From Escherichia phage ESCO5: DNA of 64,000 nt. The DNA lies in sequence record NC_047776.2; one strand, 5' to 3'. A model generated the notes under the pieces. The model did no database searches. It worked only from the letters and a program-made list of their open reading frames with translations, and had not been told where the DNA came from. The stretch's first letter is position 1. Every line of letters begins with the position of its first letter. Made by a program: the position numbers and the translations under genes. Shown here one piece after another: positions 1 to 57,854 of this stretch.

Positions 1-770
1 ATTTCTTCCAGGCACGCAATCTTCAATCCTTGACAGTTCTCAATAGTCTGCACGAATTGACCAGCTTCCATCAGACTGGCGTGTGTTCCTGTGTCAAGCC
101 AAGTAAATCCTCGTCCGAGAACTTCCACTTGTAACTTCCTGTCTTCGAGGTAGCTGCGATTGATATCAGTGATCTCCAGTTCTCCACGCGCGGAAGGGGT
201 TACTTCTAATGCACGTTGAATAACAGAGTTATCATAGAAATACAAACCTGTGACAGCATAATCTGATTTAGGATTTTCAGGTTTCTCTTCAATAGAAATA
301 ACTTGACGATTACTCCCAAATTCAACCACACCGAATCGTTCAGGATCTTTCACCAAACACCCGAAGATACAAGCTCCGCCCCAAACATCTACCATCTCAC
401 TAGCGTCAATCAGTAGTTTACCAAAGCTTTGTCCGAAGAATAGGTTGTCACCTAAAATAAGAGCAACAGAGTCTTCTCCGATAAAATCTTTACCGATGAT
501 GAAAGCGTCCGCAAGACCTCGTGGCTTGGATTGGATTGCGTAAGTGAGTTTTATCCCAAACATAGACCCATCTCCAAGAAGATACTCAAAGTCTTCCTGA
601 TCGCCTGGTGTGGTGATGATTAAGATATCCTTAATGTCAGCCAACATCAATACCGATAAAGGGTAGTAGATCATGGGTTTGTCATACACAGGGAGCAATT
701 GCTTGCTCACACTGCGTGTTACCGGATGAAGGCGGGTTCCACTTCCTCCCGCCAAAATAATACCTTTCAT
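1..770 (-). CDS. rmlA: glucose-1-phosphate thymidylyltransferase (RmlA), 3' end runs off the window
   Basis: Minus-strand ATG at 770-768 behind a GGAGG RBS; translation [39 protein letters not shown] matches the RmlA N-terminal nucleotide-binding motif; open to position 1. Not in the ORF track because it is truncated. Confidence 0.85.
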
Positions 771-778
771 AACCCTCC

Positions 779-1771
779 TTAAATCTTCTCACTCCACCAT
801 TGAGGGTTGTTTAAGTACCATTCAATCGTTGAGTAGAGATCTTGTTCAAATGTAGAGTTTGCACTCCAACCCAGTTCAGACTCTATTTTAGAAGGATTGA
901 TTTCATAACGCAAGTCATGTCCTTTACGATCTTCAACAAAAGTTATCAAGTTGGAAGAAGGGTAGGTTCCTGCTTCTGGATGTACAGCATCTATGTAGTC
1001 ACAAACCATATAGATGATCTCCATATTGGTTTTGGGATTACGTGTTCCAACATTATACGTTTGACCTGGTTCTCCACCTGTTGCCACTTGAAGAATAGCT
1101 CGCGCATGATCCTCAACAAAAAGCCAGTCTCGCACCTGATCGCCTTTACCATACACCGGAATCTCTTTATTCGTCAAGATACTTGTGATGATTTTTGGGA
1201 TCAGCTTTTCTGGATGTTGATAAGGTCCAAAGTTATTGGAGCAGTTGGTTATCACAACAGGTAAACCGTAGGTACGGTACCAAGCTTTCACAAGATGGTC
1301 AGATGCTGCCTTAGACGCACTGTACGGGCTTGAAGGGGCATAAGCTGTCTCTTCGGTAAAGGGAACGCCAGAGTCTGCCATATCGCCGTACACTTCGTCT
1401 GTGGAGACATGTACGAACATCTTAAGTTTATTTTTTGGGAGGAGCCTTGCAGCTTCCAATAAATTGTATGTACCAATAATATTGGAGTCGATGAAAACTC
1501 GTGGATTCTTGATAGAATTATCCACATGACTCTCTGCCGCTAAGTGAATGATGAAATCGGGATTGCACTCTACTACTAAACTTTTGACCTGGGTTTCGTT
1601 TGCCAAATCTGTTATGCTCAGTTTAACGTGAGTGATATCGCCTACATTCTCAATATCTGCTGCATAGCCCATCTTATCAACGACAAAAACTTCGTTATTG
1701 GGATCTTGACAAAGAGAGCGCACCACGGCACTCCCAATAAAACCAAGACCACCTGTTACCAGATAGCGCAT
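779..1771 (-). CDS. rmlB: dTDP-glucose 4,6-dehydratase (RmlB)
   Basis: 330 aa; N-terminal Rossmann GGLGFIGS; catalytic YSASK (YxxxK) triad of short-chain dehydrogenases; immediately upstream of rmlA. Confidence 0.85.
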
Positions 1772-1780
1772 CAGTTCTCC

Positions 1781-2107
1781 TTACCAGACATGTTGAGAAA
1801 TAATAGTTTCCGTTTTAATGTTATATTTTTCAAGTAGCTTTGCATAGGCTTCTTTTGCATTCTCATTCAATTGCTCAAGATCTACAGCTATGCTTCCTTC
1901 TCCTCCTTCTAAATCAAGGCCATATATGCAATAAGACTCATCCGCATCGTAGAAAGGAGAGATGCGGCTTAAGTCAAGACCTTCTTGTAAGAACCAGTTA
2001 AAATCTCCGTCAAATTCTTCTTCAATTCTAGGATCTTCTCCTACAGCCTCTTCCCACTTATTTAAAGGTGCACCCTGTAACATACGCCATTCGATATCAA
2101 TACCCAT
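1781..2107 (-). CDS. hypothetical strongly acidic protein
   Basis: 108-aa ORF rich in D/E; packed tail-to-head with neighbours. Confidence 0.4.
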   Translation of the reverse strand: MGIDIEWRMLQGAPLNKWEEAVGEDPRIEEEFDGDFNWFLQEGLDLSRISPFYDADESYCIYGLDLEGGEGSIAVDLEQLNENAKEAYAKLLEKYNIKTETIISQHVW

Positions 2108-2403: not shown

Positions 2404-2612
2404 TATTCCTCCTTAATTATTTCAAACTTGGCAACACCATTTACAATAATATGACCACAAGACATAACTCCTAGCCAAGGATCGCCGTTTTTCTTCAGGC
2501 GTTTACCGAATACATCACAAAAACCATTCTTCATTTCAGAGGCTTCATAAGAAGCCCCTTTATCAAAAACGTCTTTGAATGTGTCGATTATACCAACACA
2601 TTTCAAAATCAT
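2403..2612 (-). CDS. hypothetical protein
   Basis: 69-aa ORF, start overlaps nrdB stop. Confidence 0.4.
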   Translation of the reverse strand: MILKCVGIIDTFKDVFDKGASYEASEMKNGFCDVFGKRLKKNGDPWLGVMSCGHIIVNGVAKFEIIKEE

Positions 2613-3697
2613 TCGAAGTCAAGCTCCTCATCATCAGAGAGATCTTTGTTAGCTGAATTCAATTTGTAGTTAGTTAACTGAATCTCTTGGGCTGCTGACT
2701 GAATCAAATCAGGATTCAACCATTTTTCCATCCAAGCTAAAGGGCTATGTTTAGGTGCTTTAAACTTGGCTTTCATTTTCAATCGACGATAAATAGGAGC
2801 AGCATTGAAATAAACCCACTGTTTAGACAATTCGGCGTTAAGACCTACAATAAAACGACCTTCACTAAACAGGTAGTCACACCACTGTTCCTCTTGTTCA
2901 ACAACAGTGTCGAGGATCAAAGTCAACTCTTCAATATTGTCTTCGTAAATTTTACGCCAAATTGGGTCATGCATCAATGCATCAATTACAGCATAATCCA
3001 TCTTAACATGCAAGATTTCATCTAGCATAATTTTCTGGATCAGTTTACAAGCTCCAACAAACAGTTGTTGTTCTGCCATAGCAAAAGTAGCAGAGAAGGA
3101 AGATATAAACTGAATACCTTCTAACCCAATCAGGGCTACCATCCCTTTAAGAATCAGCAGTCGAAGTTCATCGTTAGCTTCAATCAATCCTAGAGCATAC
3201 TTATGACCAGCTTCTTCCAACTGACCCATGATATCAGCAATGATACCCATACGATTGAAAATTTTATCATTAATCATAATCTGATTGATGACTTCAATTG
3301 GATCTGGAGTACATTGACGGATTATTTCAGAATACGTTAACGCATGGAGAACTTCCATTTCACTCTGCTTCATCATCATAGCACAGGCTTCATTGTTACT
3401 CAAGAATGGAGAGAACAAAGTGATGATTGATTTTGCAAGAGAATCATTTTCCCATTGGAACGATAAGTTTTTAATCATAACATCATAGTTGTTTTTAGAA
3501 CAAGCTACGAAATCTTTACGTGTCTGATCCAAGTTAACTTCGTTTTCATCCCAATCTTGTGCTTTTTGAAGTTTGTAGAGTTTGTGCATTTCTGGATAAG
3601 TCACGTTAACAGAATCAAAGATCCCTAATTGCTCCCCCAAAAATACTGGATATTTCCCTGTCTTGTAAACTTCGTTGTGTAAATTAATTGCTGCCAT
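2609..3697 (-). CDS. nrdB: ribonucleotide reductase class Ia beta subunit (NrdB)
   Basis: 362 aa; ferritin-like di-iron R2 pattern (EEAGHKYAL...GLEGIQF...LDEILHVK); paired with nrdA. Confidence 0.9.
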   Translation of the reverse strand: MAAINLHNEVYKTGKYPVFLGEQLGIFDSVNVTYPEMHKLYKLQKAQDWDENEVNLDQTRKDFVACSKNNYDVMIKNLSFQWENDSLAKSIITLFSPFLSNNEACAMMMKQSEMEVLHALTYSEIIRQCTPDPIEVINQIMINDKIFNRMGIIADIMGQLEEAGHKYALGLIEANDELRLLILKGMVALIGLEGIQFISSFSATFAMAEQQLFVGACKLIQKIMLDEILHVKMDYAVIDALMHDPIWRKIYEDNIEELTLILDTVVEQEEQWCDYLFSEGRFIVGLNAELSKQWVYFNAAPIYRRLKMKAKFKAPKHSPLAWMEKWLNPDLIQSAAQEIQLTNYKLNSANKDLSDDEELDFE

Positions 3698-4022
3698 TTA
3701 AATCCTCCACTATTTCACAAAAACCTTTTAAGTTTAAAATATCTTGTTCCTCAACACCATTAATCCGGTAGAAACCTTCTAAGGCTTGCCATACGCTTCT
3801 ACCAAGTATAACAGTCACTGTTTCTTCACTTCTTGCTCTTGTTATTGCGTAAGCCGTAGCTTCTGGATAAAAAGATTCCCAAATCTGGATATTAGCTATT
3901 TGAAGTCCGCCAAGATAATGGTGACACCAAACAGGGGTAAAATCTTCAGGGGGAATCAACAAAGGCTTAAACCCAGGACGGTAGATTGGGGTTACTCCAG
4001 GTAAAACTATAAGTGTGCTCAT
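3684..4022 (-). CDS. hypothetical protein
   Basis: 112-aa ORF between the homing endonuclease and nrdB; RBS GAGGAGAG upstream. Confidence 0.45.
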   Translation of the reverse strand: MSTLIVLPGVTPIYRPGFKPLLIPPEDFTPVWCHHYLGGLQIANIQIWESFYPEATAYAITRARSEETVTVILGRSVWQALEGFYRINGVEEQDILNLKGFCEIVEDLNGSN

Positions 4023-4034
4023 AATCTCTCCTCA

Positions 4035-4057
4035 ATAAAAAAGGGGCCGAAGCCCCT
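4035..4057 (-). terminator. rho-independent terminator
   Basis: Minus strand GGGGC-TTCG-GCCCC hairpin followed by a T-run, just after the stop of 4064-4723. Confidence 0.55.
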
Positions 4058-4063
4058 GTATTG

Positions 4064-4723
4064 TTAGCCTCGGAATACTGTTTTTGTTTCTGCCAGATTG
4101 TAATAGAAATCCGACTTGTTTACAAGTGTTTTGTAAACATCCTTACAAAAATGATCTTCCTGTTTGTAACGTTCCGCTGTCTCTTTGATGGACTTGGCTT
4201 TATCCTTAAGCCAAGCAAAATGTGCTTCTTCTTCTGTTGCAAAGTATCCTAAATGTTTGCTCTTGCTACCAGAAGCTTTGGCATAAATTTTACCATCTCC
4301 TTTCCTGACGTGCGCTCCCAGTAAATACTTCCTTTCTGTTCTCTTTGAGAAACTCAAAAGGGTATTCACATACGGAGGAACAAATCTACAATATTCAGGG
4401 CAGTATACAGTATTACCTTCCAGAACAAGGTCTTTGTCTAAAACAAAACCTTCGACATTATGTTCTTGATACCAGGTATCAAAATTTGAGAAAGTAAACC
4501 AAGAATCACACACAGTAGTAAACTCATAACCAGGACGTGTGTCCTTCATTTTATAAGCCCTATCAAACATGTTCCTCCACGCTGCATAAGAAGGATCTAT
4601 GAAAGTGTTTACTCTCTTCCCATTAATGGTTCCCCCTTCCCACAGTCTACGATCTACGTCCACAATCAAGGGGATTTCTCCCCTCTCTGTGAGAACGGTA
4701 ACTTTACGTTTACCCTTCTTCAT
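4064..4723 (-). mobile_element. AP2-domain homing endonuclease-like gene inserted between nrdA and nrdB
   Basis: 219 aa; AP2-like segment GKIYAKASGSKSKHLGYFATEEEAHFAW; paralog of 21002-21607; nrd intergenic position is a classic homing-endonuclease site. Confidence 0.55.
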
Positions 4724-4734
4724 CTGTTCTCCTA

Positions 4735-6978
4735 CTACATTTTACAGGCACTACACCCTTCGTCTTCAGAATCTTCTTGTGCTAAAGAATCTGCTGATTT
4801 TGTTCTACTATTAAGGTAATACAATGATTTGCCACCCAGTCTAGCAAAATTCAGAATAAACTGCATCTCAGCTTTCACGGATAAACGTCCACCTACTAAT
4901 TTAGAATAATCTAGCCAAGAATCACAAGAAATTCCTTGGTCAGTAAATTTGGTAAAGATACCATACATTTCTGCAAGGTCTTTAGCCGGAGTATCCCAGG
5001 CAGATTGGTAGAACATTTTCAGTTTTTCGTAGTCTGGAACAATAAATAATACACTACCTTTCTGACTTTGTTTATACATAATGGTATCACGGACAGGATA
5101 CAGAGAGTTAGTAGTATTGCTTACCAAACTGCTGGACTCATTAGGTGCAATAGCAGCCAATACACTGTTACGGATACCACCTTGTTCAATGATTTCAGCA
5201 CGTAAGCCTTCCCAGTCCATTTTAAGATCAAAATTACCGATACTATCTACTGTTTTAGCATAGGTGTCAATTGGTAGCCAACCTTGAGGCCATTTGGTCT
5301 TATCGATCCATTCCGCATTACCTTTTTCCTTAGCCAGACGCAGAGAGGCTTTTGCCAACCAAAAGTAATGACGTTCTGCAAGTTCATGCATTAATTTTTT
5401 AGCATAAGCATCTGAATAATTTACAAAATTACTTGCCAAGTAATGCGCTAAGTTTGTAATACCTACACCAATAGATCTACGTGCTTTAGCAGTTATTTCG
5501 TTATGTTTAAATGGATAATCCATTGTTTCAATAACGTTGTCAATTGTCAATACAGTGTAGTATGCAACATCCTCATATTCTTCAGGTAATACACGACCAG
5601 CAACAATAGAAGATAAGAAGCATAAAGCCAATTCTTGATCTTCTGTATTCTCACCAGTAAAGAGATCCGGCATACTGTGGAAAGCTTTAGTTGGCAAGAA
5701 GATCTCTTGACACAGGTTTGATTGATACACCGTATCCAGGAAAGGTGTATGGTTGTTAACGTTGTCAGCAAAGAACATGTAAATACGTCCTGTTTCTGCA
5801 CGTTGAACAATAATCTCTGTCAGAAGATCACGAGCCTTAACAAATTTTTTCTTAATGCGACGACGACTTACTTTGTCATAAACTGCATCAAACTCTTCTT
5901 CACTTTTATATAAAGCTTCATAAAGTTCAGGAGCATCATCACAACTAACTAACATCCAGTCTTCGTTTTTTGCTGCTCGACGCAAGAACGAACGGTTAAC
6001 AACAATAGAATAATCTAGTTTATCCACTCGTTTATCTATAGGTGTTGTTGGATTCTTCAGTCGAATCAGATCGTCGAAGTCTGGTTCAAGTATGGTAAAG
6101 GTAACTGTAGCACTACCTCCACGGCTTGCTTGCTTTGAAGCTCCAACACTATCTTCCATCCATTTCAGATACGGAAGAAGACCACCGTGAATAATACGAT
6201 TATTCTTAACACCTTGACCTGTGGCACGAGTTTGAAGATTAACACCAATACCTGCGTTATTCAACGTATACTCATGAGCTAAGTAATTAGCAATGGCTAA
6301 AGACTCTGCCGTATCGTCTGCACGGAATAAACAACAAGACGCACTTCCTTTGATTGGAGTTCGTAGAGTTGTCAGATATGGCGATGGCAGATTAATCTTA
6401 AGATCGCTGACATAAGTATAAAGTTTTTTAATATCTTCTATACGGCGTTCTTTTGGTTGGATCTCCATAACCTTCATTGCGATACCAATGAAAAGGAACT
6501 GTGGAGACTCATGCACCACATCGTTTACTGCATCTCGAATAAGATATTTATCCACCATTTGACGTAAAACAGAATAACCATAAGTTAGATTTTTATTATG
6601 CTTTACAATCTTACCGATTTCTTTGATCTCTTCATCAGTATAATCCATTTTAGCCCAATGACCACGTTCTACCATATCATGATAAAAGGTATTCAGTGAA
6701 GGGATACTGTGGTATCCCCCATGAGCCTGTTTGTAAATCATACCCAGAAGAAGTCTTCCTGCCATATCACTGTAAGCTTGTGTTTTCTTGTCAATACACG
6801 CTGCAATCATTGCTTTATGCAGATCACGTGTAGACACACCGTCATAACACCGCTTCACAGCTTCTAATTCAATTTCAGACCAGTTTAGTTTACCTGCTGC
6901 AAATTCAGACCACTTGCGAAGTTTTTCTGGGTTAAACTCCTCTGTCTTACCATTAGATTTAGTTACAAAACGAATCAA
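4735..6978 (-). CDS. nrdA: ribonucleotide reductase class Ia alpha subunit (NrdA)
   Basis: 747 aa; N-terminal ATP-cone-like segment, then large catalytic domain; adjacent to nrdB. Confidence 0.9.
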   Translation of the reverse strand: MIRFVTKSNGKTEEFNPEKLRKWSEFAAGKLNWSEIELEAVKRCYDGVSTRDLHKAMIAACIDKKTQAYSDMAGRLLLGMIYKQAHGGYHSIPSLNTFYHDMVERGHWAKMDYTDEEIKEIGKIVKHNKNLTYGYSVLRQMVDKYLIRDAVNDVVHESPQFLFIGIAMKVMEIQPKERRIEDIKKLYTYVSDLKINLPSPYLTTLRTPIKGSASCCLFRADDTAESLAIANYLAHEYTLNNAGIGVNLQTRATGQGVKNNRIIHGGLLPYLKWMEDSVGASKQASRGGSATVTFTILEPDFDDLIRLKNPTTPIDKRVDKLDYSIVVNRSFLRRAAKNEDWMLVSCDDAPELYEALYKSEEEFDAVYDKVSRRRIKKKFVKARDLLTEIIVQRAETGRIYMFFADNVNNHTPFLDTVYQSNLCQEIFLPTKAFHSMPDLFTGENTEDQELALCFLSSIVAGRVLPEEYEDVAYYTVLTIDNVIETMDYPFKHNEITAKARRSIGVGITNLAHYLASNFVNYSDAYAKKLMHELAERHYFWLAKASLRLAKEKGNAEWIDKTKWPQGWLPIDTYAKTVDSIGNFDLKMDWEGLRAEIIEQGGIRNSVLAAIAPNESSSLVSNTTNSLYPVRDTIMYKQSQKGSVLFIVPDYEKLKMFYQSAWDTPAKDLAEMYGIFTKFTDQGISCDSWLDYSKLVGGRLSVKAEMQFILNFARLGGKSLYYLNSRTKSADSLAQEDSEDEGCSACKM

Positions 6979-7754: not shown

Positions 7755-8753
7755 TCACCATTTAGTATGATTTGTTAAAAGTTGACGATGTTGAATCCAA
7801 CCTTTGAAATTGCCAGACCAAAACTTACCATTACGATCTACATGGGTAATACCTGGTTCCCAAGAGTTAAAATCCCAGGGAGCATTGATAAACAAATCTT
7901 CAAAACAGTTCTCTCCGTATTGTTCGCATGTTTCTTGCATTGGGGTGGCTTGATGTTCAAACGGAGAAGCATGAACCTTACGCCCAGTCAGCAAACGACC
8001 ATAGATATCTAAAGCTTTATCTTTAGTTGCATTCAAACGACGATAGCTAACCTGTGCACAACACGAAGCTGAAATAGCTTTGGCTTCTTCCAAAGTAAGC
8101 ACAACAACTTCTCCAGATTCATCTTGAACATAGTATCCACCAAAAACAAAATGATCGTCACCTTCTGTGCCAATATTATCATAGAAATGGTCTACATAAG
8201 GTGTGTGCCATTGCCCTGGTTTCAGCACTTCTGGTGTAGATTCTTCATACTCTTTGTGCATCTCTTTAGCCAAAGCTTCGATAGTAGGATCGGCTTCTTT
8301 GTCATCACGTAGCCACCAGAAATTTTCATATTCTGTTGCTGTCAGAACTGTTTTAATTCGTTGGAAAGGTTCCAGAAGACGGTTTGCAACTTGTTTGTGG
8401 TACCCTGCCAAAGAGAATTCTTCTGCAAAACGTGCTGCACTAAGCGCGGCAAGATCCCACCACTCTTGAGCAGTATAACCTGCATCAATAAGAGCATCAT
8501 GGTCAACACCTTTGTCCTGCATACCAGGTTGGTTAGCCCCAAAACGATAAGGACGAGCAGGCTGATTTCGCACCATTTCGATCAGTGTTTTAACAGGTAT
8601 AGCACGGCTAGAAGCAGCGTTACGACTGAACAGGCGGTGAGTCATCAGTTCTGAATGAATAATACGTGGATATTCAAGTTCGAAAGTTACAATCTCTTTT
8701 CCGTCTTCAGTGATGGAATGTGCAATAATACTAGCCGAAATCTGTTTTGTCAT
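7755..8753 (-). CDS. ThyX-like flavin-dependent thymidylate synthase family protein (divergent)
   Basis: 332 aa; THRLFSRNAASSR resembles the ThyX signature RHRxxSxNxxSxR but with T for the first R; longer than typical ThyX. Confidence 0.5.
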   Translation of the reverse strand: MTKQISASIIAHSITEDGKEIVTFELEYPRIIHSELMTHRLFSRNAASSRAIPVKTLIEMVRNQPARPYRFGANQPGMQDKGVDHDALIDAGYTAQEWWDLAALSAARFAEEFSLAGYHKQVANRLLEPFQRIKTVLTATEYENFWWLRDDKEADPTIEALAKEMHKEYEESTPEVLKPGQWHTPYVDHFYDNIGTEGDDHFVFGGYYVQDESGEVVVLTLEEAKAISASCCAQVSYRRLNATKDKALDIYGRLLTGRKVHASPFEHQATPMQETCEQYGENCFEDLFINAPWDFNSWEPGITHVDRNGKFWSGNFKGWIQHRQLLTNHTKW

Positions 8754-8762: not shown

Positions 8763-9371
8763 TTAGTTTTTAAAATTGTTCAAAGTGTTAAAAACATCCA
8801 AACATGTTAGCCACTGATCTTCTAAACCTGTGATCACAACGTTTGGTTTTTTCTTTAGTTCTTCTAGATGGTTATCTTTATAAGGTGTATTAAAATATAT
8901 TTTAACTACTTCATCCGGAAAATATAATAGGTTATCAGCCCTGTCATCTATTGCTATATCACAAGGTAATAAGTATTTTTCTTTCGTAGCAAAAAAGCCG
9001 TTACCAGATCCTTTGCTAAAATCAATCGTATCTAATGTTCTTAAAACATGTTTATGTTTAGAACTTAAGTGACCACCTTTTGTCACACTCGCGATCAAAA
9101 GATTGCTACCTTTCCTTGAAACATACTTTAAGAAATCTGGCATACCTGGAACAAAACCCATTGTATCGTAGAGATGAGGATTATCCAGAAATCCGTAAGG
9201 ATCTATGTTGAACTCTTCCCTGAAACCAGGAAAATAGTTGGTAAGATCATAATCTGCATTTTTTGTGAATGTGTCGATTTTAACACCAAGGCCACTAATC
9301 TTATTCAACCATTCTAACCAAGCAACATCTAACGGAGCCACAACTAAATCCCAATCACATACTATCTGCAT
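8763..9371 (-). CDS. HAD-like 5'(3')-deoxyribonucleotidase (putative)
   Basis: 202 aa; N-terminal IVCDWDLVV is a DxDxV HAD motif. Confidence 0.45.
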   Translation of the reverse strand: MQIVCDWDLVVAPLDVAWLEWLNKISGLGVKIDTFTKNADYDLTNYFPGFREEFNIDPYGFLDNPHLYDTMGFVPGMPDFLKYVSRKGSNLLIASVTKGGHLSSKHKHVLRTLDTIDFSKGSGNGFFATKEKYLLPCDIAIDDRADNLLYFPDEVVKIYFNTPYKDNHLEELKKKPNVVITGLEDQWLTCLDVFNTLNNFKN

Positions 9372-24192: not shown

Positions 24193-24267
24193 GGCCCTGT
24201 AGCTCAATGGGAGAGCTGTCGGCTCATAACCGATAGGTAGCTGGATCGAAACCAGCCAGGGCCACCA
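24193..24267 (+). tRNA. tRNA with CAT anticodon (Met or Ile2)
   Basis: GGCCCTG acceptor pairs CAGGGCC; anticodon loop CTCATAA; encoded CCA. Confidence 0.7.
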
Positions 24268-24269
24268 AC

Positions 24270-24344
24270 GTCTTTATGGTGTAATGGATAGCACAGGAGT
24301 CTTCTAAACTCTTAGTCAAGGTTCGATTCCTTGTAAAGACACCA
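24270..24344 (+). tRNA. tRNA-Arg (TCT)
   Basis: Acceptor GTCTTTA/TAAAGAC; anticodon arm GGAGT-CTTCTAA-ACTCT; T-loop TTCGATT; CCA. Confidence 0.65.
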
Positions 24345-24540
24345 GAACATTTTAACATGAATTAGCTCAAGTGATTTGAACCCACTACTGATCATGGTGG
24401 CAGAGAATGAGGCAAGTATGTCAGACATTATAAACAAAGGCCACGGTTATATTAGAAGACATAAATGCTCGAAGAGCACCGTTCGTGGAGAACGGGGGTT
24501 GGTGGAGTCACCATTCATGGTAAAATGTTTTAAAAAACTA

Positions 24541-24569
24541 TTGACAACAAACATTATTTTATGTTAGAT
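24541..24569 (+). promoter_or_regulatory. sigma70-like promoter
   Basis: TTGACA, 17-nt spacer, TTAGAT; upstream of tRNA-Ser. Confidence 0.4.
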
Positions 24570-24578
24570 TATAAGTAT

Positions 24579-24669
24579 GGAAGGGCAAATCGACGTGGCG
24601 ACGAAAACGGTCTTGAAAACCGCCGAGCTTGAAAGAGCCTTGGGAGTTCGACTCTCCCTCCTTCCGCCA
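24579..24669 (+). tRNA. tRNA-Ser (TGA), type II
   Basis: Acceptor GGAAGGG/TCCTTCC, loop CTTGAAA, long variable arm; close to E. coli Ser(UGA) arms. Confidence 0.65.
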
Positions 24670-24674
24670 GATTA

Positions 24675-24760
24675 GGTAGATTGGTGAAATGGTAGCCACG
24701 ACAGTTTGCTAAACTGTAGTCGGAAACGGCGTGTAGGTTCGAGTCCTACATCTACCGCCA
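24675..24760 (+). tRNA. tRNA-Ser (GCT), type II
   Basis: Acceptor GGTAGAT/ATCTACC, anticodon loop TTGCTAA, long variable arm, CCA. Confidence 0.6.
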
Positions 24761-24890
24761 AGTTCTTTTTAATGTAGCTTACTTTAGCAGAGTAAATCTT
24801 CGGCAAGTGGCGGTAACCACTTTACCGATACCTCATAGTTAGTGGTGCGAACACTGGCTATTTTAAAAAGAATTTAAATATTAGTATTTA

Positions 24891-24978
24891 GGTGAGTTAA
24901 TTCCGTAGGGGTAGCGGGGCAGACTGTAAATCTGTTATCATTGCGATTCGGGTGGTTCGACTCCATCACTCACCACCA
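24891..24978 (+). tRNA. tRNA-Tyr (GTA), type II
   Basis: Acceptor GGTGAGT/ACTCACC, anticodon arm CAGA-CTGTAAA-TCTG, long variable arm, CCA. Confidence 0.6.
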
Positions 24979-24984
24979 AATTAA

Positions 24985-25070
24985 GATGAGTTGGCTGAAT
25001 GGTTTAAGCGGCGGACTGTTAATCCGTGTTCGAAAGAACAATATAGGTTCGAATCCTATACTCATCGCCA
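24985..25070 (+). tRNA. tRNA-Asn (GTT) with an unusually long variable arm
   Basis: Acceptor GATGAGT/ACTCATC, discriminator G; anticodon arm GCGGA-CTGTTAA-TCCGT matches E. coli tRNA-Asn; ~15-nt GTTCGAAAGAAC hairpin before T-arm; 86 nt. Confidence 0.5.
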
Positions 25071-25080
25071 GAATTATGGA

Positions 25081-25158
25081 CTTGTAGAGTTAAGGTAAAC
25101 CCCCAGTCGCCAATAGGCTTCTGGAATTGCAGGTATCGAATCCTGCCGAGTCCCAGCA
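25081..25158 (+). ncRNA. tRNA-like element, anticodon arm unresolved
   Basis: Acceptor GGACTTG/CGAGTCC and T-arm GCAGG-TATCGAAT-CCTGC present; central region does not fold into canonical D/anticodon arms by eye; no CCA. Confidence 0.3.
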
Positions 25159-25160
25159 TT

Positions 25161-25235
25161 GCTCCTATAGTATAATGGCTATTACAACGGTTTTGTAATC
25201 CGTGGATCTCTGTTCGATTCAGTGTGGGAGCACCA
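25161..25235 (+). tRNA. tRNA-Thr (TGT) (putative)
   Basis: Acceptor GCTCCTA/TGGGAGC, D-arm like E. coli Gly, anticodon loop TTTGTAA, CCA. Confidence 0.5.
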
Positions 25236-25508
25236 ACACAACATTAAGAGCACTGTGATTGATCGTCGTATCCTGTGCACAAGGTCTGCTCGAAAGACAG
25301 TGTTCTTAGTATTGTGTTGATCACAAAAAGAGTCACCCGAAACTTGACCGGAGTAGGGTTGGATGGGGCAAAATGAGAAGCGGCTCTCCCATCGACAGCA
25401 ACGAAGAATAATATTTGACTTTTGTTTTGTATTATTTTAAGTTAGCTTACCGAACGTAGGGCTAGTCACCCAACGGGATACTCGTCACTGTCCCACTCAA
25501 TAAAACTA

Positions 25509-25538
25509 TTGACAACCAATAGTAAAATGTAGTATAGT
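25509..25538 (+). promoter_or_regulatory. sigma70-like promoter
   Basis: TTGACA, 18-nt spacer, TATAGT; upstream of tRNA-Gly. Confidence 0.45.
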
Positions 25539-25549
25539 AAAGATGTAGG

Positions 25550-25623
25550 GCGTTCTTGGTGTAGCGGTAGCATTCCGTCCTTCCAAGTCGGCGGCACGAG
25601 TTCGATCCTCGTAGAACGCTCCA
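25550..25623 (+). tRNA. tRNA-Gly (TCC)
   Basis: Acceptor GCGTTCT/AGAACGC, anticodon loop CTTCCAA, T-loop TTCGATC, CCA. Confidence 0.6.
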
Positions 25624-25721
25624 AATTATTTAATAAAGGGTTGCCAGAAAACTTTCTCTTTTACTCATGGTTTTCTCCTTCTCTCACACTTCTTCTGGTT
25701 GCCCTTCATTAAATGATTTAT

Positions 25722-25797
25722 TGGTTTGTAGTGTAGTCCGGTAGCACACGACACTTTGACTGTCGTAGGTTTGGTTCAAATCCAGACAGACCAGCCA
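25722..25797 (+). tRNA. tRNA-Gln (TTG)
   Basis: T1-A72 start TGGTTTG/CAGACCA like E. coli Gln, anticodon arm CGACA-CTTTGAC-TGTCG, CCA. Confidence 0.65.
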
Positions 25798-25870
25798 TAT
25801 AACAAAGGTGAGTCACTACCTTAAGTGTGAAGTTAAAAACGAGGAGCCGCCGAACACTTTCTTTTGCGGT

Positions 25871-25947
25871 GTACCTTTAGAATGTTATCACGGGACGTAG
25901 CACAGCTTGGTAGTGCGCTCGCTTTGGGAGCGAGAGGTCGAGTGTTC
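25871..25947 (+). tRNA. tRNA-Pro (TGG)
   Basis: Acceptor CGGGACG/CGTCCCG, anticodon arm CTCGC-TTTGGGA-GCGAG, CCA. Confidence 0.7.
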
Positions 25948-25953
25948 GAATCA

Positions 25954-26027
25954 CTCCGTCCCGACCAATTAAATGTTTCGTAGTTCAATGGTAGAACCCA
26001 CGACTGATAATCGTGAGACACAAGTTC
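25954..26027 (+). tRNA. tRNA-Ile (GAT)
   Basis: Acceptor TGTTTCG/CGAAACA, anticodon arm CACGA-CTGATAA-TCGTG, CCA. Confidence 0.65.
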
Positions 26028-26028
26028 G

Positions 26029-26098
26029 ATTCTTGTCGAAACAACCAGTTTCCCGTTAGACTTACAGGATAAGAGATCCACAATTTATTGTGACGCTG
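26029..26098 (+). ncRNA. tRNA-like element, anticodon arm unresolved
   Basis: T-arm GCTGG-TTCGAAT-CCAGC and acceptor-like TCCCGT/ACGGGA; interior has a CACAAT-TT-ATTGTG hairpin instead of a 7-nt anticodon loop; no CCA. Confidence 0.3.
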
Positions 26099-26125
26099 GT
26101 TCGAATCCAGCACGGGATACATAAT

Positions 26126-26204
26126 AGCGGGATAGAGGAGTCTGGTCGTCCTCGCCAGTTTCATATGCTGGAGATCATTGGTTCAAATCCAATTCCCGCC
26201 TCCA
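26126..26204 (+). tRNA. second tRNA with CAT anticodon (Met or Ile2)
   Basis: Anticodon arm CCAGT-TTCATAT-GCTGG, T-loop TTCAAAT, 3' TCCCGCC-T-CCA; possible 1-72 A/C mismatch. Confidence 0.55.
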
Positions 26205-32024: not shown

Positions 32025-33140
32025 GTGGCAAATACATATTTAACTAACGTAGACTTTTCAGGAAAAGCTACGGAAGAGTCACTAGGTGCTCATATTGCTT
32101 ACACTTTTGATTTTCAAGGTGGAGCGGCATCTGGTTATAATACCCCCCTTTTATTTAAGTCAGACGGATCTCCAGACATAACTTTTGAAAAGTTAGAAGC
32201 TCTCACTAAAATGGGAGAAGATGTTACAGAGTTACGTAAAAGCTATATTCAACAAGTGATGGATCGCATTTCTGAAAAAGTGCGTGAAAAATTTGAAGCT
32301 GGTTGGGATTGGGTTTACGTTATTGATGCTGACTTCGATGCGAACGTTGCAATTTTCTGTTCAGATAACGGTATGTTCTCTGTTGGCTTTAAAGTTGACG
32401 GACTGAATGTTGAAGTTGAAGAGGTTGCTAAACCTGTTGTTCGTGTTACTGATTATCAAGTTGTTGATGGTGATGTAATGATCTCCATTGATTTCTTTGA
32501 GGACGTTTTAGACGATGCTTTGAGTAATCTCGTTAAGAGTTCCTTGAAACAAAGTCAAGTTAAAGATTATTTAGTGAAAGCTCACGCTAAAGCTAATACA
32601 AACTCTGTGGATGCAGAGGCTAACCCCGCAGGTGATAAATCTGCAAACACAACTGGAATCAATAAAGGAGAAACCCCTTTGGAAAATATCAACAAAGAAG
32701 AATTCCTGAAATCTGCTGAATTCCAAGAACTGATGAAAGCACAGATCGCTGAAGCTGTAGAAAAAGCAGCCGCAGATGCACGTGCAGCCGCAGAACTTGA
32801 AGCACAGGAAAAAATCGCTAAGGCAGAACAGGAAGCAGAAGAACTTCGTAAAGCTGAACAAGCTCGTATCGAAGAAGAATATACAACTGTTGTTAAATCC
32901 TATTCTTTCGTAGAAGAAGACAAAGTTGAAGCTCTCGTTAAATATCTGGTAGATAATAAAGATATCGCTGAAACTATCGTCAAAGCATTCGAAAAAGCAC
33001 GTGCAGAAGTGGACGCAGTTAAGAAAGAATTTGGAGCAGAACGTGGTGTTGATGTGATCAATACTCAACCTGTAGCTAAATCTTCTTCTGAACTGATTAG
33101 TCAGAAAGCTGCTGAACTTAAAAAAGCCCAGAAACAATAA
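32025..33140 (+). CDS. scaffolding protein (putative)
   Basis: 371 aa, GTG start; Ala/Glu/Lys-rich coiled-coil segment (AEAVEKAAADARAAAELEAQEKIAKAEQEAEELRKAEQ); precedes capsid genes. Confidence 0.5.
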   Translation: MANTYLTNVDFSGKATEESLGAHIAYTFDFQGGAASGYNTPLLFKSDGSPDITFEKLEALTKMGEDVTELRKSYIQQVMDRISEKVREKFEAGWDWVYVIDADFDANVAIFCSDNGMFSVGFKVDGLNVEVEEVAKPVVRVTDYQVVDGDVMISIDFFEDVLDDALSNLVKSSLKQSQVKDYLVKAHAKANTNSVDAEANPAGDKSANTTGINKGETPLENINKEEFLKSAEFQELMKAQIAEAVEKAAADARAAAELEAQEKIAKAEQEAEELRKAEQARIEEEYTTVVKSYSFVEEDKVEALVKYLVDNKDIAETIVKAFEKARAEVDAVKKEFGAERGVDVINTQPVAKSSSELISQKAAELKKAQKQ

Positions 33141-33159
33141 TCTTAGGAGATTAAATTAA

Positions 33160-33558
33160 ATGGCTAAAGGAATTACTTTATCTAACTCTCGCCAGGAATT
33201 CGGACACCTGGTTCTGGGTGGAGTGTTTAGCTCTGACCTTGGACACTGTGTACGTGAAGTTAACCTGGTTAAAACAGCAACCATGAAAATTGGTTCTATC
33301 CTGAAAGCTGACAACACTGAAGCTGCTAAAGCTGAAGCTGCCGATGCTGCTAAAGTTCTGATTTGGACTGATGCTCTGTTCGGTATTGATGATGTAGCAG
33401 TAGGTGACACTTTCACCGCAGTTGTTGGCGTACGTGATCTTACTCTGAACCGCTTTGCAGTATACTACAAAGATGGCTCCCTGGTAGATGACGCTGGCGT
33501 AGCAGCACTGGAAACACATGATCTGAAACTGACCGAAAAAGTCGTTTTCACTTCTTAA
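33160..33558 (+). CDS. abundant head protein (decoration or minor capsid, putative)
   Basis: 132 aa; strong shift to CTG/CGT/GGT codons shared with the next gene. Confidence 0.4.
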   Translation: MAKGITLSNSRQEFGHLVLGGVFSSDLGHCVREVNLVKTATMKIGSILKADNTEAAKAEAADAAKVLIWTDALFGIDDVAVGDTFTAVVGVRDLTLNRFAVYYKDGSLVDDAGVAALETHDLKLTEKVVFTS

Positions 33559-33579
33559 TTTTAATAGGAGATTAATATA

Positions 33580-34581
33580 ATGCCAGCAGTAATTTTAGAT
33601 CAGGTTGTAGATTTCAGCCCTATGATCGAACTTCAGGATTCCCCTGATACACTGATTGCCAGCCTGAATCTGTTCAGCGTTGACTATCATTCAACTACCG
33701 CTATTGAAATCGGTAAAGAAAAAGCTGAAGATGCGCTGATCTCCGCTCGTGAGCGTGGTGGTGAGCGTAACTTCCTGACCATGAAAAATCCAGAACTGAA
33801 AGCGTTCCGTATTCCGTTCTTCCCTCTGGATAAAAACATCAAAGCTCAAGATATTCAATCTTTCCGTAGCTTTGCGATGGCAGGAATCAATGACTCTCTG
33901 CGCACAGACGCTGAAGTTGTTAACCGCTATATGTCCCAGATTCTGCGTGACGTAGCAAAAACCAAAGAGAAAATCTTTGCAGAAGCAGTTATGGGTCGTG
34001 CCTATAACGGCGTAGGTGGTGCAGCTAACTCTGCATACAACTGGTATACCGAGTGGAATGCTACCCAGAAATCTGTTGCTGTAGACTTTGCTTCTACCAC
34101 TGTTTCTCCAGCAGCCACTATCGAGCAAGAAGCTCGTGCTTACATCATCGATACTAAACAAGATGGCTCTACCGCTACTCGTATCGTAGCTCTGTGTTCT
34201 CGTGAATTTTTCGCATCTCTGGTTAACTCTCCATTTGTTCGCCAGGCATATCAGTATTTCCAAGGAACTCCTAACCTTCTGCGTGACCGCCTTAGCGGTA
34301 ACATGGATGTTCAGGTGTTCGAATGGAACGGTGTAACTTACATTGAAGATATCCACGGTAACATCCCTGCTGGTGAAGCATATGTTCTGCCTATGGGTAT
34401 CGAAGGTATGTTCCAGGCGCACTACGCTCCTGCGGATACTCCAGAACTGGCTAACACCCAGGCTCGTGAACTGTATACCTTCATGATCAGCCAGCACCGC
34501 ACCATTCAGCTTCAGTCTGAATTCTCGCTGCTCGCAGTTAACACCCGTCCAGAACTGGTAGTTAAACTGACTACGGCTTAA
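33580..34581 (+). CDS. major capsid protein (putative)
   Basis: 333 aa; position after scaffold; highly biased codon usage; followed by strong terminator. Confidence 0.55.
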   Translation: MPAVILDQVVDFSPMIELQDSPDTLIASLNLFSVDYHSTTAIEIGKEKAEDALISARERGGERNFLTMKNPELKAFRIPFFPLDKNIKAQDIQSFRSFAMAGINDSLRTDAEVVNRYMSQILRDVAKTKEKIFAEAVMGRAYNGVGGAANSAYNWYTEWNATQKSVAVDFASTTVSPAATIEQEARAYIIDTKQDGSTATRIVALCSREFFASLVNSPFVRQAYQYFQGTPNLLRDRLSGNMDVQVFEWNGVTYIEDIHGNIPAGEAYVLPMGIEGMFQAHYAPADTPELANTQARELYTFMISQHRTIQLQSEFSLLAVNTRPELVVKLTTA

Positions 34582-48861: not shown

Positions 48862-48869
48862 GGGGTAAA

Positions 48870-51023: not shown

Positions 51024-51031
51024 GAGTAAAA

Positions 51032-53797: not shown

Positions 53798-53825
53798 TAC
53801 CGCTTAGGCGGTATTTCAATCTTTA
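53798..53825 (+). terminator. rho-independent terminator
   Basis: ACCGC-TTAG-GCGGT followed by T-rich run. Confidence 0.5.
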
Positions 53826-53845
53826 TATCTCACTTAGAGGTACTC

Positions 53846-54109
53846 ATGGTTAAAGAGAAAAACGGTTTTAAAAAATTTATTCGCGGAATGTTCTGCACTT
53901 ACCCCGGCAACGGGGTAAGCTCTACGAAAGTCTGGAACGCTGTAGGCATGTCGGTTATGACAGGCATGTTTATCTTTTTAGGAATAGAAAAAGAAATTCC
54001 TGAATGGATGGGTTGGGCTTTTGTTTTCATGATAACCCCTTCTCGCCTCATGAAAAATCTTATTGATTTACGTTGGGGCAGATCACAATCTACCAAAGAG
54101 GATGACTAA
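53846..54109 (+). CDS. small membrane protein
   Basis: 87 aa; two hydrophobic segments (VMTGMFIFLGI, WAFVFMI). Confidence 0.35.
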   Translation: MVKEKNGFKKFIRGMFCTYPGNGVSSTKVWNAVGMSVMTGMFIFLGIEKEIPEWMGWAFVFMITPSRLMKNLIDLRWGRSQSTKEDD

Positions 54110-55596: not shown

Positions 55597-55598
55597 AA

Positions 55599-56228
55599 AT
55601 GGCAGTGAGTGTTGACCATGTAACAACTTGGGCCAGTATCAATGAAGATGTTAAAAACCTTCTGATTGAAGATTTTAAATCTTCTCCTAACATTGTCAAG
55701 CTCCTCTACATCGTATCCAGTGAAAAGCAAAAGATAGATCAGGCAATGATCTATCTTGCTAAACACCGCTTGATCTCCACAGCCACAGGCAAATACCTAG
55801 ATATCTTAGGAGAAGAAATGGGGATCGAACGTAATGGCTCTGATGATGAAGAGTATAGAACAATATTAAAAATCAGGGCTTACCGCGTAGCCTCATCGGG
55901 GACTCGTGGTGACATAATTGATATCTTCGCCCGTTTCACAGGAACAGAGCGTGAAACGCTTAATACTTACGTAGGTTTGAATAAAACCTTTGATGTGTTT
56001 TTCTACAACCTGTGTCTTCAATCTGATCAAGCTTTAGAGCAGTTGCTAAGTGTTTTCCCTATTATTAGTAGCTACCGTCTTGGAGCAAAAGCAGGATCAG
56101 CTTTTGGTTTTAGTTCTTATTATGCTGCCAAACCGCCTCATGGTATTGGTGGTTTAGGTTCCCTGTACATGGAATCTACTGGGGATGAAACAGGACGCAT
56201 GTGTACGCTTCTCAAGCAAATAGATTAA
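55599..56228 (+). CDS. baseplate/tail fibre-associated protein (putative)
   Basis: 209-aa ORF. Confidence 0.35.
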   Translation: MAVSVDHVTTWASINEDVKNLLIEDFKSSPNIVKLLYIVSSEKQKIDQAMIYLAKHRLISTATGKYLDILGEEMGIERNGSDDEEYRTILKIRAYRVASSGTRGDIIDIFARFTGTERETLNTYVGLNKTFDVFFYNLCLQSDQALEQLLSVFPIISSYRLGAKAGSAFGFSSYYAAKPPHGIGGLGSLYMESTGDETGRMCTLLKQID

Positions 56229-56237
56229 GGAGTTTAA

Positions 56238-57299: not shown

Positions 57300-57845
57300 A
57301 TGATATTTACAAACTTTAAAAAATATATTCCTGAAGACCCTGAACTAAAAGAATTGGTAGAAGCAGAGAACATTCTTTTTCTTCGTTGCGATCAAGGTTA
57401 CGATTGGTATGATTTACGTAGCACAGAATTCAATAACGATAAAATGAAAGTCGTTTTTGATGATCAAAATCGTATTGTGTTTTGGAATACTGATCCTACA
57501 CTACTTTGCCCTGAAGATCTTTCTATAGCACAAGTAGACTTTAACATAGATACTTTTGAGGATATTAGGAACAAGGTTCTGGATTTAGAAACCTTAACTC
57601 TTAAGAATAAAGAGTATTCCCGTGAAGAGTTGATGACACAAGCTAGTGCAAAAATTCGCTCTTTACAAGAAACAGCGGTAGCACTTATAACACCTTTACA
57701 GTATGCTAAAGATTTAGAAATGGCTACTGAAGACGAATTAGCTTATCTTAAAAATCTTCAAGTTTATGTAGTTAAACTAAATCGTGTTCCGCTTCAAAAA
57801 GACTATCCTTACGCTATAGATTGGCCTACATTACCGACAGAATAA
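57300..57845 (+). CDS. tail fibre assembly protein (putative)
   Basis: 181 aa; start overlaps previous stop. Confidence 0.35.
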   Translation: MIFTNFKKYIPEDPELKELVEAENILFLRCDQGYDWYDLRSTEFNNDKMKVVFDDQNRIVFWNTDPTLLCPEDLSIAQVDFNIDTFEDIRNKVLDLETLTLKNKEYSREELMTQASAKIRSLQETAVALITPLQYAKDLEMATEDELAYLKNLQVYVVKLNRVPLQKDYPYAIDWPTLPTE

Positions 57846-57854
57846 GGGATCACT

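Follow-up and report, generated by a model that had tools for sequence, protein, structure and literature searches.

Predicted dTDP-L-rhamnose genes of Escherichia phage ESCO5 combine an exchangeable rmlB-rmlA cassette with invariant rmlC and rmlD

Introduction

What does a virulent coliphage do with genes for an activated deoxysugar? The question is raised by the left end of a 64,000-nucleotide stretch of the Escherichia phage ESCO5 genome (NC_047776.2; hereafter the window), where rmlA and rmlB adjoin a block of nucleotide-metabolism genes. An earlier note on this DNA had suggested that their product may serve to glycosylate phage DNA or virion proteins, or to alter the host O-antigen. The rml genes of this phage group have already been annotated and discussed, and both the pathway and the idea of DNA glycosylation were published between 2012 and 2023 (for the sugar nucleotide and DNA glycosylation, see PMC7552041). 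Our additions are small: the cassette behaviour of rmlB and rmlA and the invariance of rmlC and rmlD, the co-occurrence of a glycosyltransferase block with rmlC as judged by record counts, and a search in which the prerequisites of T4-style DNA glycosylation were not found. The phages concerned, Phapecoctavirus and Justusliebigvirus, infect a broad range of hosts and serve as components of cocktails for therapy and biocontrol; one of them, REC, was part of an eight-phage cocktail tried in chicken embryos (PMC10269720).

Results

The rml operon and its predicted product

The window matches OM386667.1 (Escherichia phage vB_EcoM_REC, a Phapecoctavirus) with 100% identity, its position 1 falling on record position 34474, and positions to the left of the window are given in the coordinates of that record. 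REC arose in the laboratory by recombination between ESCO5 and ESCO37, and its reported crossover boundary lies at record position 34365 (PMC10269720). This is the end of rmlA, and the rmlB and rmlA genes of REC therefore derive from ESCO5. The DNA of phAPEC8 is about 98% identical to the window. The relevant features are as follows.

Record 32966-33808, leftward, past the window edge: rmlD, overlapping rmlC (NCBIfam equivalog, 238.9 bits against a cutoff of 224.05)
Record 33802-34368, leftward, past the window edge: rmlC, overlapping rmlA (NCBIfam equivalog, 225.3 bits against a cutoff of 155.75)
1..770, minus strand: rmlA (glucose-1-phosphate thymidylyltransferase), codons 1-256 of 292, frame open to the window edge
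774..780, minus strand: Shine-Dalgarno sequence of rmlA, AAGGAGG, read from the sequence
779..1771, minus strand: rmlB (dTDP-glucose 4,6-dehydratase), complete, a single open reading frame of 330 codons
1777..1782, minus strand: Shine-Dalgarno sequence of rmlB, AAGGAG, placed by aligning the junctions in REC and ESCO37 and by the ESCO37 gene map
1781..2107, minus strand: orf108, conserved hypothetical gene directly upstream of rmlB (open reading frame, match to phrog_15453)
2609-3697, minus strand: nrdB (open reading frame)
4735-6978, minus strand: nrdA (open reading frame)
7755-8753, minus strand: ThyX-like open reading frame (Pfam Thy1, 35 bits)
8763-9371, minus strand: NT5C-like open reading frame (26 bits)

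The identities that the earlier note had given to rmlA and rmlB, and their phage origin, proved correct. RmlB scores 428 bits against TIGR01181, a family of extended SDR proteins, above the curated equivalog cutoff of 365.1, and matches the Pfam families GDP_Man_Dehyd and Epimerase. It carries GGLGFIG at residue 7 (the NAD-binding GxxGxxG of a Rossmann fold) and two catalytic motifs, TDE at 124 and YSASK (YxxxK) at 150. It is 50% identical to E. coli RffG/RfbB; RmlB of phage phi92 is closer, at 62%. Among bacteria, the top matches (about 50%) lie in unrelated phyla, and none of the best 80 loci belongs to the Enterobacterales. Recent capture of rmlB from a host was rejected on the basis of these values, which reach 50% with the K-12 proteins and about 50% with the best bacterial genomes. 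RmlA starts with the ATG at 770-768 and is cut by the left window edge after codon 256; the full protein of 292 residues ends at record position 34365 and is annotated as REC_00160 (OM386667.1). Against TIGR01207 (cutoff 360.65) it scores 415.6 bits as the 256-residue fragment and 459.5 bits at full length, it contains the signature GGSGTRL (GGxGTRL) at 8 and, as motifs of the sugar-phosphate/Mg site, LGDN at 106, EKP at 162 and LDTG at 225, and it is 62-63% identical to the K-12 proteins. By these assignments, RmlA is predicted to make dTDP-glucose from dTTP and glucose-1-phosphate and RmlB to turn it into dTDP-4-keto-6-deoxyglucose. The Shine-Dalgarno sequence of rmlA overlaps the rmlB stop codon (781-779), which indicates that translation of the two genes would be tightly coupled.

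Partner genes had been expected just left of position 1, and rmlC and rmlD are indeed found there. The operon runs rmlB-rmlA-rmlC-rmlD on one strand with all genes contiguous or overlapping, and leftward co-transcription with the nucleotide-metabolism block is supported; nrdB, nrdA and the ThyX-like and nucleotidase genes, all named before as its context, lie on the same strand. All four enzymes of the dTDP-L-rhamnose pathway are thus predicted to be encoded in one orientation. The dTDP-4-keto-6-deoxy-glucose previously taken as the product holds for the RmlA and RmlB steps; it is not the end of the pathway, since rmlC and rmlD at the left edge would carry it on to dTDP-L-rhamnose. RmlC is 50% identical to its K-12 counterpart. 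RmlD scores just above its cutoff and shares 31% identity with E. coli RfbD, values that leave room for the C4-epimeric product 6-deoxy-L-talose instead of L-rhamnose. The glycosyltransferase or aminotransferase that had also been anticipated downstream is absent: in the record annotation the operon is followed on the left by a glutaredoxin gene, a small open reading frame, a lysozyme gene and PhoH, with no transferase adjoining it.

rmlB and rmlA form an accessory cassette

In all relatives, orf108 is the fixed neighbour of a variable slot in which the next gene is rmlB, rmlA or rmlC. In ESCO37, which has neither rmlB nor rmlA, orf108 is joined straight to rmlC, and 22 of about 62 close records show this junction. 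The right-hand boundary of the cassette is the Shine-Dalgarno sequence of rmlB (1777..1782), whose GGAG directly precedes the rmlC start in phages that have no cassette. One relative has the arrangement rmlA-C-D without rmlB. Another shares 92% (RmlB) and 97% (RmlA) identity with REC, yet its RmlC and RmlD are only 66% identical. The third-position GC content is 0.39-0.41 for rmlB and rmlA versus 0.22-0.27 for rmlC and rmlD. Every Stephanstirmvirinae-type record or contig examined keeps the latter two genes, and their identity from one genus to another is 53-66%. rmlB-rmlA is thus an accessory, exchangeable cassette with its own composition and history, and rmlC and rmlD are the invariant part of the operon.

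The earlier note had listed dispensability of the rml genes, with no phenotype, among the points that would speak against its proposal. rmlA and rmlB turn out to be naturally dispensable, precisely these two being missing from ESCO37 and about 18 other relatives. E. coli K-12 carries rffG/rffH and rfbBDAC, and the cassette may be losable because enterobacterial hosts supply dTDP-4-keto-6-deoxyglucose through RffH and RffG; its repeated absence fits such a supply.

The free gain, loss and exchange of rmlB and rmlA, and the position of the operon within a nucleotide-metabolism block, would also suit a phage that makes no dedicated glycan, with the rml genes a metabolic moron that tunes dTTP and glucose-1-phosphate pools, or a near-neutral passenger, and any glycosyltransferases working separately on host UDP-sugars. 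Constant retention of rmlC and rmlD at 53-66% identity argues against this: it implies that the rhamnose-specific steps have long been under purifying selection, and these steps play no part in nucleotide pools. A phage as AT-rich as this one (GC content 0.39) could moreover ill afford a drain on dTTP, and we consider this explanation highly improbable.

A distant block of predicted glycosyltransferases

Four adjacent predicted glycosyltransferase genes (REC_00265 to REC_00268) lie at record positions 109875-113019, about 75 kb from the operon and beside the primase gene. All four are assigned to glycosyltransferase-labelled PHROGs, and structure models of two of the four proteins show GT-A and GT-B folds, respectively. 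The fourth, REC_00268, has no Pfam match; its assignment comes from its PHROG, a DXD-like motif and a note in the phi92 record. NCBIfam gave no match for any of the four, and PDB sequence searches with the three larger candidates returned nothing useful.

The same phages appear to carry this block and rmlC. Counts of matching records are 63 at 95% identity or more and 67 at 60-80% for RmlC, and 63 at 95% or more and 62 at 60-90% for the GT-A gene. The organism tallies of the two lists are near-identical, and neither leaves room for rV5-like Vequintavirinae. Notes in the phAPEC8 and phi92 records assign PVP-SE1/rV5 counterparts to the genes that flank the rml and glycosyltransferase clusters, whereas the rml and glycosyltransferase genes carry no such note. 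By these record counts, the block and rmlC occur in the same phage group. Two distant metagenomic relatives have an NDP-sugar 4,6-dehydratase-like gene within their glycosyltransferase cluster. We infer from the matching counts and this one neighbourhood observation in distant relatives that the rml genes and the transferases may be functionally coupled; the transferases could also use host UDP-sugars.

Among the top structural neighbours of the two modelled proteins are PglA/PglH, PimA and WaaG, which act on undecaprenyl-diphosphate- or other lipid-linked acceptors, and the wall-polymer enzymes TarP, TarS and RmlT. Taken together, the neighbours of the predicted folds include transferases for DNA, for proteins, for lipid-linked acceptors and for polymers, so the folds point to no single acceptor class.

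Possible acceptors of the sugar

We propose that RmlA and then RmlB would yield dTDP-4-keto-6-deoxyglucose, which RmlC and RmlD would finish to dTDP-L-rhamnose, and that the phage transferases would use the activated sugar to assemble a glycan with rhamnose in it on an acceptor accessible from the cytoplasm. rmlC, rmlD and the four primase-side transferases would form the conserved core of this system. rmlB-rmlA would be an exchangeable booster, losable where the host provides the 4-keto intermediate; every enterobacterial host would make it with RffH and RffG for enterobacterial common antigen (ECA), and many with RfbA and RfbB as well. As our best guess, the acceptor is a virion protein, the likeliest of the candidates, with DNA the least likely. 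Taken as a whole, from functional rml genes and host supply to a rhamnose glycan on a virion protein, this is the explanation towards which we lean, if only slightly. No paper was found that shows a rhamnosylated product in any member of this phage group. A glycosylated virion might alter recognition by antibodies, an effect reported for mycobacteriophages, and could perhaps change stability or adsorption as well. To our knowledge it would be the first among phages of Gram-negative bacteria.

The structural neighbours that act on lipid-linked acceptors or wall polymers would also agree with remodelling of the host envelope. Rhamnose could be added to undecaprenyl-linked O-antigen, ECA or LPS-core intermediates, or their precursors diverted, with RmlC and RmlD competing with WecE for dTDP-4-keto-6-deoxyglucose; the outcome would be masking of the receptors that infected cells and debris carry, or a perturbed envelope. 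ECA and the LPS outer core are the reported receptors of these phages (PMC8594841), and ECA synthesis has the 4-keto intermediate in common with the rml pathway. Against these points, neither the annotation nor the Pfam scans revealed a flippase, a polymerase, GtrA/GtrB or any further membrane machinery for glycans. The phages are virulent, with a short cycle, and Vequintavirinae, for which the same receptors are reported (PMC8594841), are apparently devoid of both gene sets. Envelope remodelling is in our judgement unlikely on these grounds. We know of no virulent coliphage that remodels host envelope glycans in this way. A seroconversion-type system is likewise not indicated, as neither a GtrA, GtrB or Gtr-type protein nor an O-acetyltransferase was found in the annotation or among Pfam matches of the uncharacterised open reading frames, and the phages are lytic with no reported integrase (PMC10269720).

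The possibility that the transferases place rhamnose on a modified base to evade host nucleases, in the manner of the glucosylated hydroxymethylcytosine of T-even phages, was weakened by the searches. Neither a dNMP hydroxymethylase, a TET/JBP protein or another base-modifying enzyme, nor a flippase or polymerase, was detected in the annotation of 296 features or by Pfam on the longer among the hypothetical proteins and a further 117 uncharacterised open reading frames. The latter matched 21 families, within the sensitivity of Pfam, and none of these was thymidylate-synthase-like or TET/JBP. The sole candidate for a base enzyme is the ThyX-like gene, for whose product a PDB sequence search gave no match at E<0.01; the gene is common to rV5 and PVP-SE1, both of which have neither rml nor glycosyltransferase genes, and for that reason it was not counted as part of the rml system. 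A match to the TAGT family covers only 37 residues in the nucleotide-binding region, and many GT4 enzymes that do not act on DNA outscore AGT and BGT. In the sister genus, the phi92-like phages share this gene set and are called "exceptionally susceptible" to restriction-modification systems (PMC8594841); Stephanstirmvirinae, too, are reported to be sensitive to many of these systems (PMC10844046). T4-like glycosylation of DNA is improbable in the light of these results. A variant in which rhamnose or a short rhamnose glycan sits on phage DNA at a hydroxymethylase-independent site, and does not block the restriction systems tried, we regard as very improbable, although some room is left for it by restriction data that cover the sister genus and a small set of enzymes, by the blindness of Pfam to unknown families, and by the position of both clusters in DNA-metabolism modules. 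If true, rhamnose on phage DNA would amount to DNA hypermodification of a new kind; a system that targets DNA or the host envelope would be relevant to defence evasion or to receptor masking.

Comparison with known systems

Nothing essential sets the operon and block apart from those of the type phages of the two genera. phAPEC8 (Phapecoctavirus; gp166-169) has the same rmlBACD and four transferase genes at the same positions. In phi92 (Justusliebigvirus; gp64-67 and gp163-166) genes and positions are again the same, with proteins 54-72% identical; the order is likewise B-A-C-D, between the open reading frames on the nrdB side and the glutaredoxin gene, and a predicted glycosyltransferase fold is already noted in the record for gp163-166. 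The four enzyme families are also those of the bacterial pathway (rfbBDAC and, for ECA, rffG/rffH of E. coli), with equivalog cutoffs passed and catalytic motifs kept. The phage genes differ from these in their setting: they belong to a nucleotide-metabolism operon that includes neither flippase nor polymerase, rather than to an O-antigen cluster.

T-even phages encode the dCMP hydroxymethylase gp42 together with alpha- and beta-glucosyltransferases, and RB69-like phages have arabinosyl-hydroxymethylcytosine with a phage-encoded sugar supply (cited in PMC7552041). As in these phages, the transferase genes lie in early or replication regions. The present group differs in that no hydroxymethylase was found, the donor is a dTDP-6-deoxyhexose and relatives are restriction-sensitive. 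Transferases of the mycobacteriophages Che8 (gp108-110), Corndog and Myrna glycosylate capsid and tail-tube proteins (summarised in PMC12363180 and PMC11256854), and the two groups are alike in having several GT-A type transferases outside the structural module. Among phages outside the present group, tblastn places transferases of cluster-F mycobacteriophages closest to the GT-A gene (25-28% identity, E about 1e-8). In a three-sequence search, REC_00267 (the GT-A protein) gave a marginal match to the N-terminal domain of Che8 gp108 (23% over 147 residues, E 8e-4) and none to gp109 or gp110. Orthology with the Che8 enzymes is not claimed, given this marginal match and a different PHROG. We know of no nucleotide-sugar pathway in the glycosylating mycobacteriophages.

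Among viruses of eukaryotes, PBCV-1 encodes enzymes for GDP-L-fucose and GDP-D-rhamnose and A64R-type glycosyltransferases, and Mimivirus makes UDP-L-rhamnose. These giant viruses and chloroviruses belong to unrelated lineages and use GDP and UDP donors, as opposed to dTDP. Synechococcus phages such as S-B43, S-H68 and S-B05 have homologues of RmlC and RmlB, adjacent in some genomes; these proteins are only 41-47% identical and come from other phage families. Two observations were made in metagenomic data: one lineage (loci L099-L106 and L091) carries glycosyltransferases that are 50-60% identical to those described here, and the relative IMG/VR 3300030441_000047 encodes a lone divergent GT-A protein near Sir2 and methylase genes.

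A complete set of rml genes

Over its first 6 kb, the window is 100% identical to Escherichia phage vB_EcoM_REC (REC; OM386667.1), a 156.3-kb member of Phapecoctavirus in the Stephanstirmvirinae. Record position 34474 corresponds to window position 1, and the rml genes were located as follows.

window 779-1771, minus strand: rmlB, complete ORF of 330 codons
window 1-770, minus strand: rmlA, partial, ATG at 770-768, open to the window edge
record 33802-34368: rmlC, overlapping the end of rmlA
record 32966-33808: rmlD, overlapping rmlC

The earlier note had called rmlA and rmlB, and both products score above their equivalog cutoffs, with the window edge cutting rmlA. Against the NCBIfam equivalog model for dTDP-glucose 4,6-dehydratase (cutoff 365.1), RmlB reached 428 bits, and it carries the GxxGxxG, TDE and YxxxK motifs. 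On the RmlA equivalog model (cutoff 360.65), the first 256 residues of RmlA gave 415.6 bits and the full-length protein of the record (292 residues) gave 459.5 bits. The two genes are spaced by 8 nt, and a GGAG-type ribosome-binding site precedes each. The neighbours named in that note (nrdB, nrdA, a ThyX-like ORF and an NT5C-like ORF) were all found on the same strand as the rml genes. Its suggestion that rmlC and rmlD may lie left of position 1 was borne out in the record (RmlC, 225.3 bits, cutoff 155.75; RmlD, 238.9 bits, cutoff 224.05), where rmlD is followed by genes for glutaredoxin, a small ORF, lysozyme and phoH. The record has neither a transferase nor an aminotransferase next to the rml genes.

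With rmlC and rmlD, the phage is predicted to code for the entire route to dTDP-L-rhamnose, beyond the 4-keto intermediate. The C4 stereochemistry of this putative end product is assigned with less assurance because RmlD shares only 31% identity with E. coli RfbD and barely exceeds its cutoff. The other enzymes are 50% (RmlB), 62-63% (RmlA) and 50% (RmlC) identical to those of K-12, and the best bacterial RmlB proteins among the matches listed, at about 50% identity, come from unrelated phyla. These values rule out recent copying of the Rml enzymes from the host.

rmlB and rmlA are an accessory cassette

REC arose in the laboratory by recombination between ESCO5 and ESCO37, and the thymidylyltransferase and dehydratase genes are absent from ESCO37 alone (PMC10269720). 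One crossover boundary was mapped to record position 34365 (PMC10269720), which is the end of rmlA (window position -108, just left of the window), so that the whole window (record 34474-98473) derives from ESCO5; the rmlC/rmlD segment left of the boundary is common to both parents. In ESCO37, orf108, the conserved hypothetical gene upstream of the rml genes, is followed by 9 nt and then by rmlC, with the junction at a shared GGAG. A megablast search with this junction found it contiguous in 22 of about 62 Phapecoctavirus-level records, representing about 18 distinct phages. One IMG/VR relative has rmlA-rmlC-rmlD without rmlB. Another encodes RmlB and RmlA that are 92% and 97% identical to those of REC, whereas RmlC/RmlD are only 66% identical and the flanking genes 57-89%, which argues that the cassette was transferred between lineages. 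GC3 is 0.39-0.41 for rmlB/rmlA, 0.22-0.27 for rmlC/rmlD and 0.26-0.36 for the neighbours. rmlC and rmlD were retained in all configurations seen.

Established E. coli biochemistry offers a simple account of this pattern. RffH/RffG provide all Enterobacterales with dTDP-4-keto-6-deoxyglucose for the synthesis of enterobacterial common antigen, and RmlC/RmlD are limited to some serotypes; E. coli K-12 has rffG/rffH plus rfbBDAC. Since the host can thus supply the 4-keto intermediate, RmlC and RmlD would have to come from the phage, and RmlA and RmlB would add flux only.

A predicted glycosyltransferase cluster beside the primase gene

No glycosyltransferase is named anywhere in the REC record annotation. 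When the longer hypothetical proteins were scanned with Pfam, three adjacent genes by the primase/helicase gene showed weak glycosyltransferase (GT) matches, and PHROGs placed four consecutive genes in glycosyltransferase-labelled families (E-values 1e-78 to 1e-149).

record 109875-113019, about 11 kb past the right window end: REC_00265, REC_00266, REC_00267 and REC_00268, the GT cluster

REC_00265 and REC_00266, at 41% identity, are paralogues of each other. For homologues at 99% identity, the AlphaFold models are confident (pLDDT 88.2 and 93.8). REC_00268 had no Pfam match; it is a putative glycosyltransferase on account of a DXD-like motif, its PHROG and a note in the phi92 record, in which the four orthologues gp163-166 are already labelled predicted glycosyltransferase folds. 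The order GT268-GT267-GT266-GT265-primase is kept in IMG/VR and Logan relatives. By tblastn, the nearest phage relatives of the GT-A gene (REC_00267) outside the Stephanstirmvirinae are cluster-F mycobacteriophage GTs; the direct match of its product to Che8 gp108 is marginal.

Three lines of sequence evidence point to a likely, though not a proven, functional coupling of the rml and GT clusters. First, the record numbers from tblastn of the phage collection match: at ≥95% identity, RmlC and the GT-A gene each have 63 records, and at lower identity RmlC has 67 (60-80%) and the GT-A gene 62 (60-90%). The organism tallies are almost equal, and these numbers leave no place for rV5-like Vequintavirinae in either list. 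Second, the records of phAPEC8 and phi92 note similarity to PVP-SE1 and rV5 genes for the flanking genes of both clusters but not for the rml and GT genes themselves, so both clusters look like insertions particular to this lineage. Third, two distant metagenomic relatives carry an NDP-sugar 4,6-dehydratase-like SDR between the GT268 and GT267 homologues near the primase gene (L090 2667-3737; L107 8622-9683). With 29-32% identity to RmlB, this SDR reaches 171 bits on TIGR01181, under the cutoff. Its place between two GT genes suggests that the sugar donor in these relatives is another 6-deoxy or 4-keto sugar.

Possible use of the sugar

A dedicated 6-deoxyhexose donor, together with four soluble transferases, points to a small glycan built on an acceptor in the cytoplasm. 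We lean slightly towards the explanation that the phage transferases use dTDP-rhamnose to make a rhamnose-containing glycan on such an acceptor; that the acceptor is a protein is a more tentative proposal, somewhat short of an even chance. The precedent comes from mycobacteriophages Che8, Corndog and Myrna, whose virion proteins are glycosylated according to the summaries in PMC12363180 and PMC11256854. A literature search found no reported glycosylation experiment for Stephanstirmvirinae.

Glycosylation of the phage DNA was put forward in 2020 (PMC7552041). Against this use of the pathway, no dNMP hydroxymethylase, TET/JBP enzyme or similar came out of the record annotation or of Pfam scans, which covered the longer hypothetical proteins and another 117 uncharacterised ORFs (each at least 90 aa; only 21 families matched in these). 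In addition, the ThyX-like gene is common to rV5 and PVP-SE1, both without rml, and phi92-like phages were 'exceptionally susceptible' to restriction-modification systems in the BASEL study despite the machinery (PMC8594841). Stephanstirmvirinae are reported elsewhere, too, to be sensitive to many such systems (PMC10844046). The same annotation and scans revealed neither a flippase nor a polymerase nor any Gtr-type membrane protein, which makes direct involvement in exporting surface glycans less likely.

Much of this was already public: the rml genes carry GenBank annotations in dozens of relatives as well as in REC, phAPEC8 and phi92, and the complete pathway with its DNA-glycosylation hypothesis (PMC7552041), the restriction sensitivity (PMC8594841) and the absence of rmlA/rmlB in ESCO37 (PMC10269720) have been reported. 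Our contribution is modest, namely the quantified polymorphism and mosaic history of the cassette, the argument for a conserved core made up of rmlC/rmlD together with four transferases, and a domain sweep negative for DNA-modification prerequisites.

Other loci in and near the window

window 3684-4723, minus strand: two inserted ORFs between nrdB and nrdA, 112 aa (3684-4022) and 219 aa (4064-4723)
window 7755-8753, minus strand: 'thymidylate synthase', 332 aa, very divergent putative ThyX-like protein
window about 24193-26204, plus strand: 10 annotated tRNA genes (Met x2, Arg, Ser, Asn, Thr, Gly, Gln, Pro, Ile)
window about 46000-64000, plus strand: several large annotated tail-fibre/tailspike genes (endosialidase, colanic-acid-degrading protein, further tailspike)
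window 51032-53797, plus strand: endo-N-acetylneuraminidase
OM386667.1 115455-122145, outside the window: tellurite-resistance-like set (TerC membrane protein, TelA-like, TerD, vWA-TerF-like)

The nrdB-nrdA gap looks like a variable mobile-element slot: it is only 44 nt in ESCO37 and holds a different ORF (135 aa) in phAPEC8, and some relatives list an 'HNH endonuclease' among the genes of the corresponding region. Pfam gave no convincing match for the 112-aa and 219-aa ORFs of REC. The ThyX-like protein matched the C-terminal part of the Pfam Thy1 model at 35 bits and TIGR02170 at 31.6 bits (cutoff 87.9), has THR where the RHR motif is usual, and hit nothing among PDB sequences at E<0.01. The tRNA cluster sits where leftward transcription turns rightward, with a change of GC-skew sign and a local GC peak of 0.44. 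The tail-fibre/tailspike set is a multivalent adsorption apparatus typical of Stephanstirmvirinae, and the endosialidase gene is among the few REC genes inherited from ESCO5 only.

In the sweep of 117 REC ORFs, one ORF matched the Acb2/Tad1 hairpin domain (E 1.9e-17), whose family comprises anti-CBASS and anti-Thoeris sponges, and one ORF each matched Macro, ComF-like PRTase and CapR domains; from these domains, the four may be counter-defence or nucleotide-signalling genes. These coliphages are matched at 97-99% identity by five 'Campylobacter phage' records (e.g. B15, C3, A145) and by some whose names give Acinetobacter, Pseudomonas or Klebsiella as host; a mislabelled host or contamination seems more likely for such records than a true host range. 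The tellurite-resistance-like set adjoins the GT cluster and is also kept in a metagenomic relative (L091 1201-8331).
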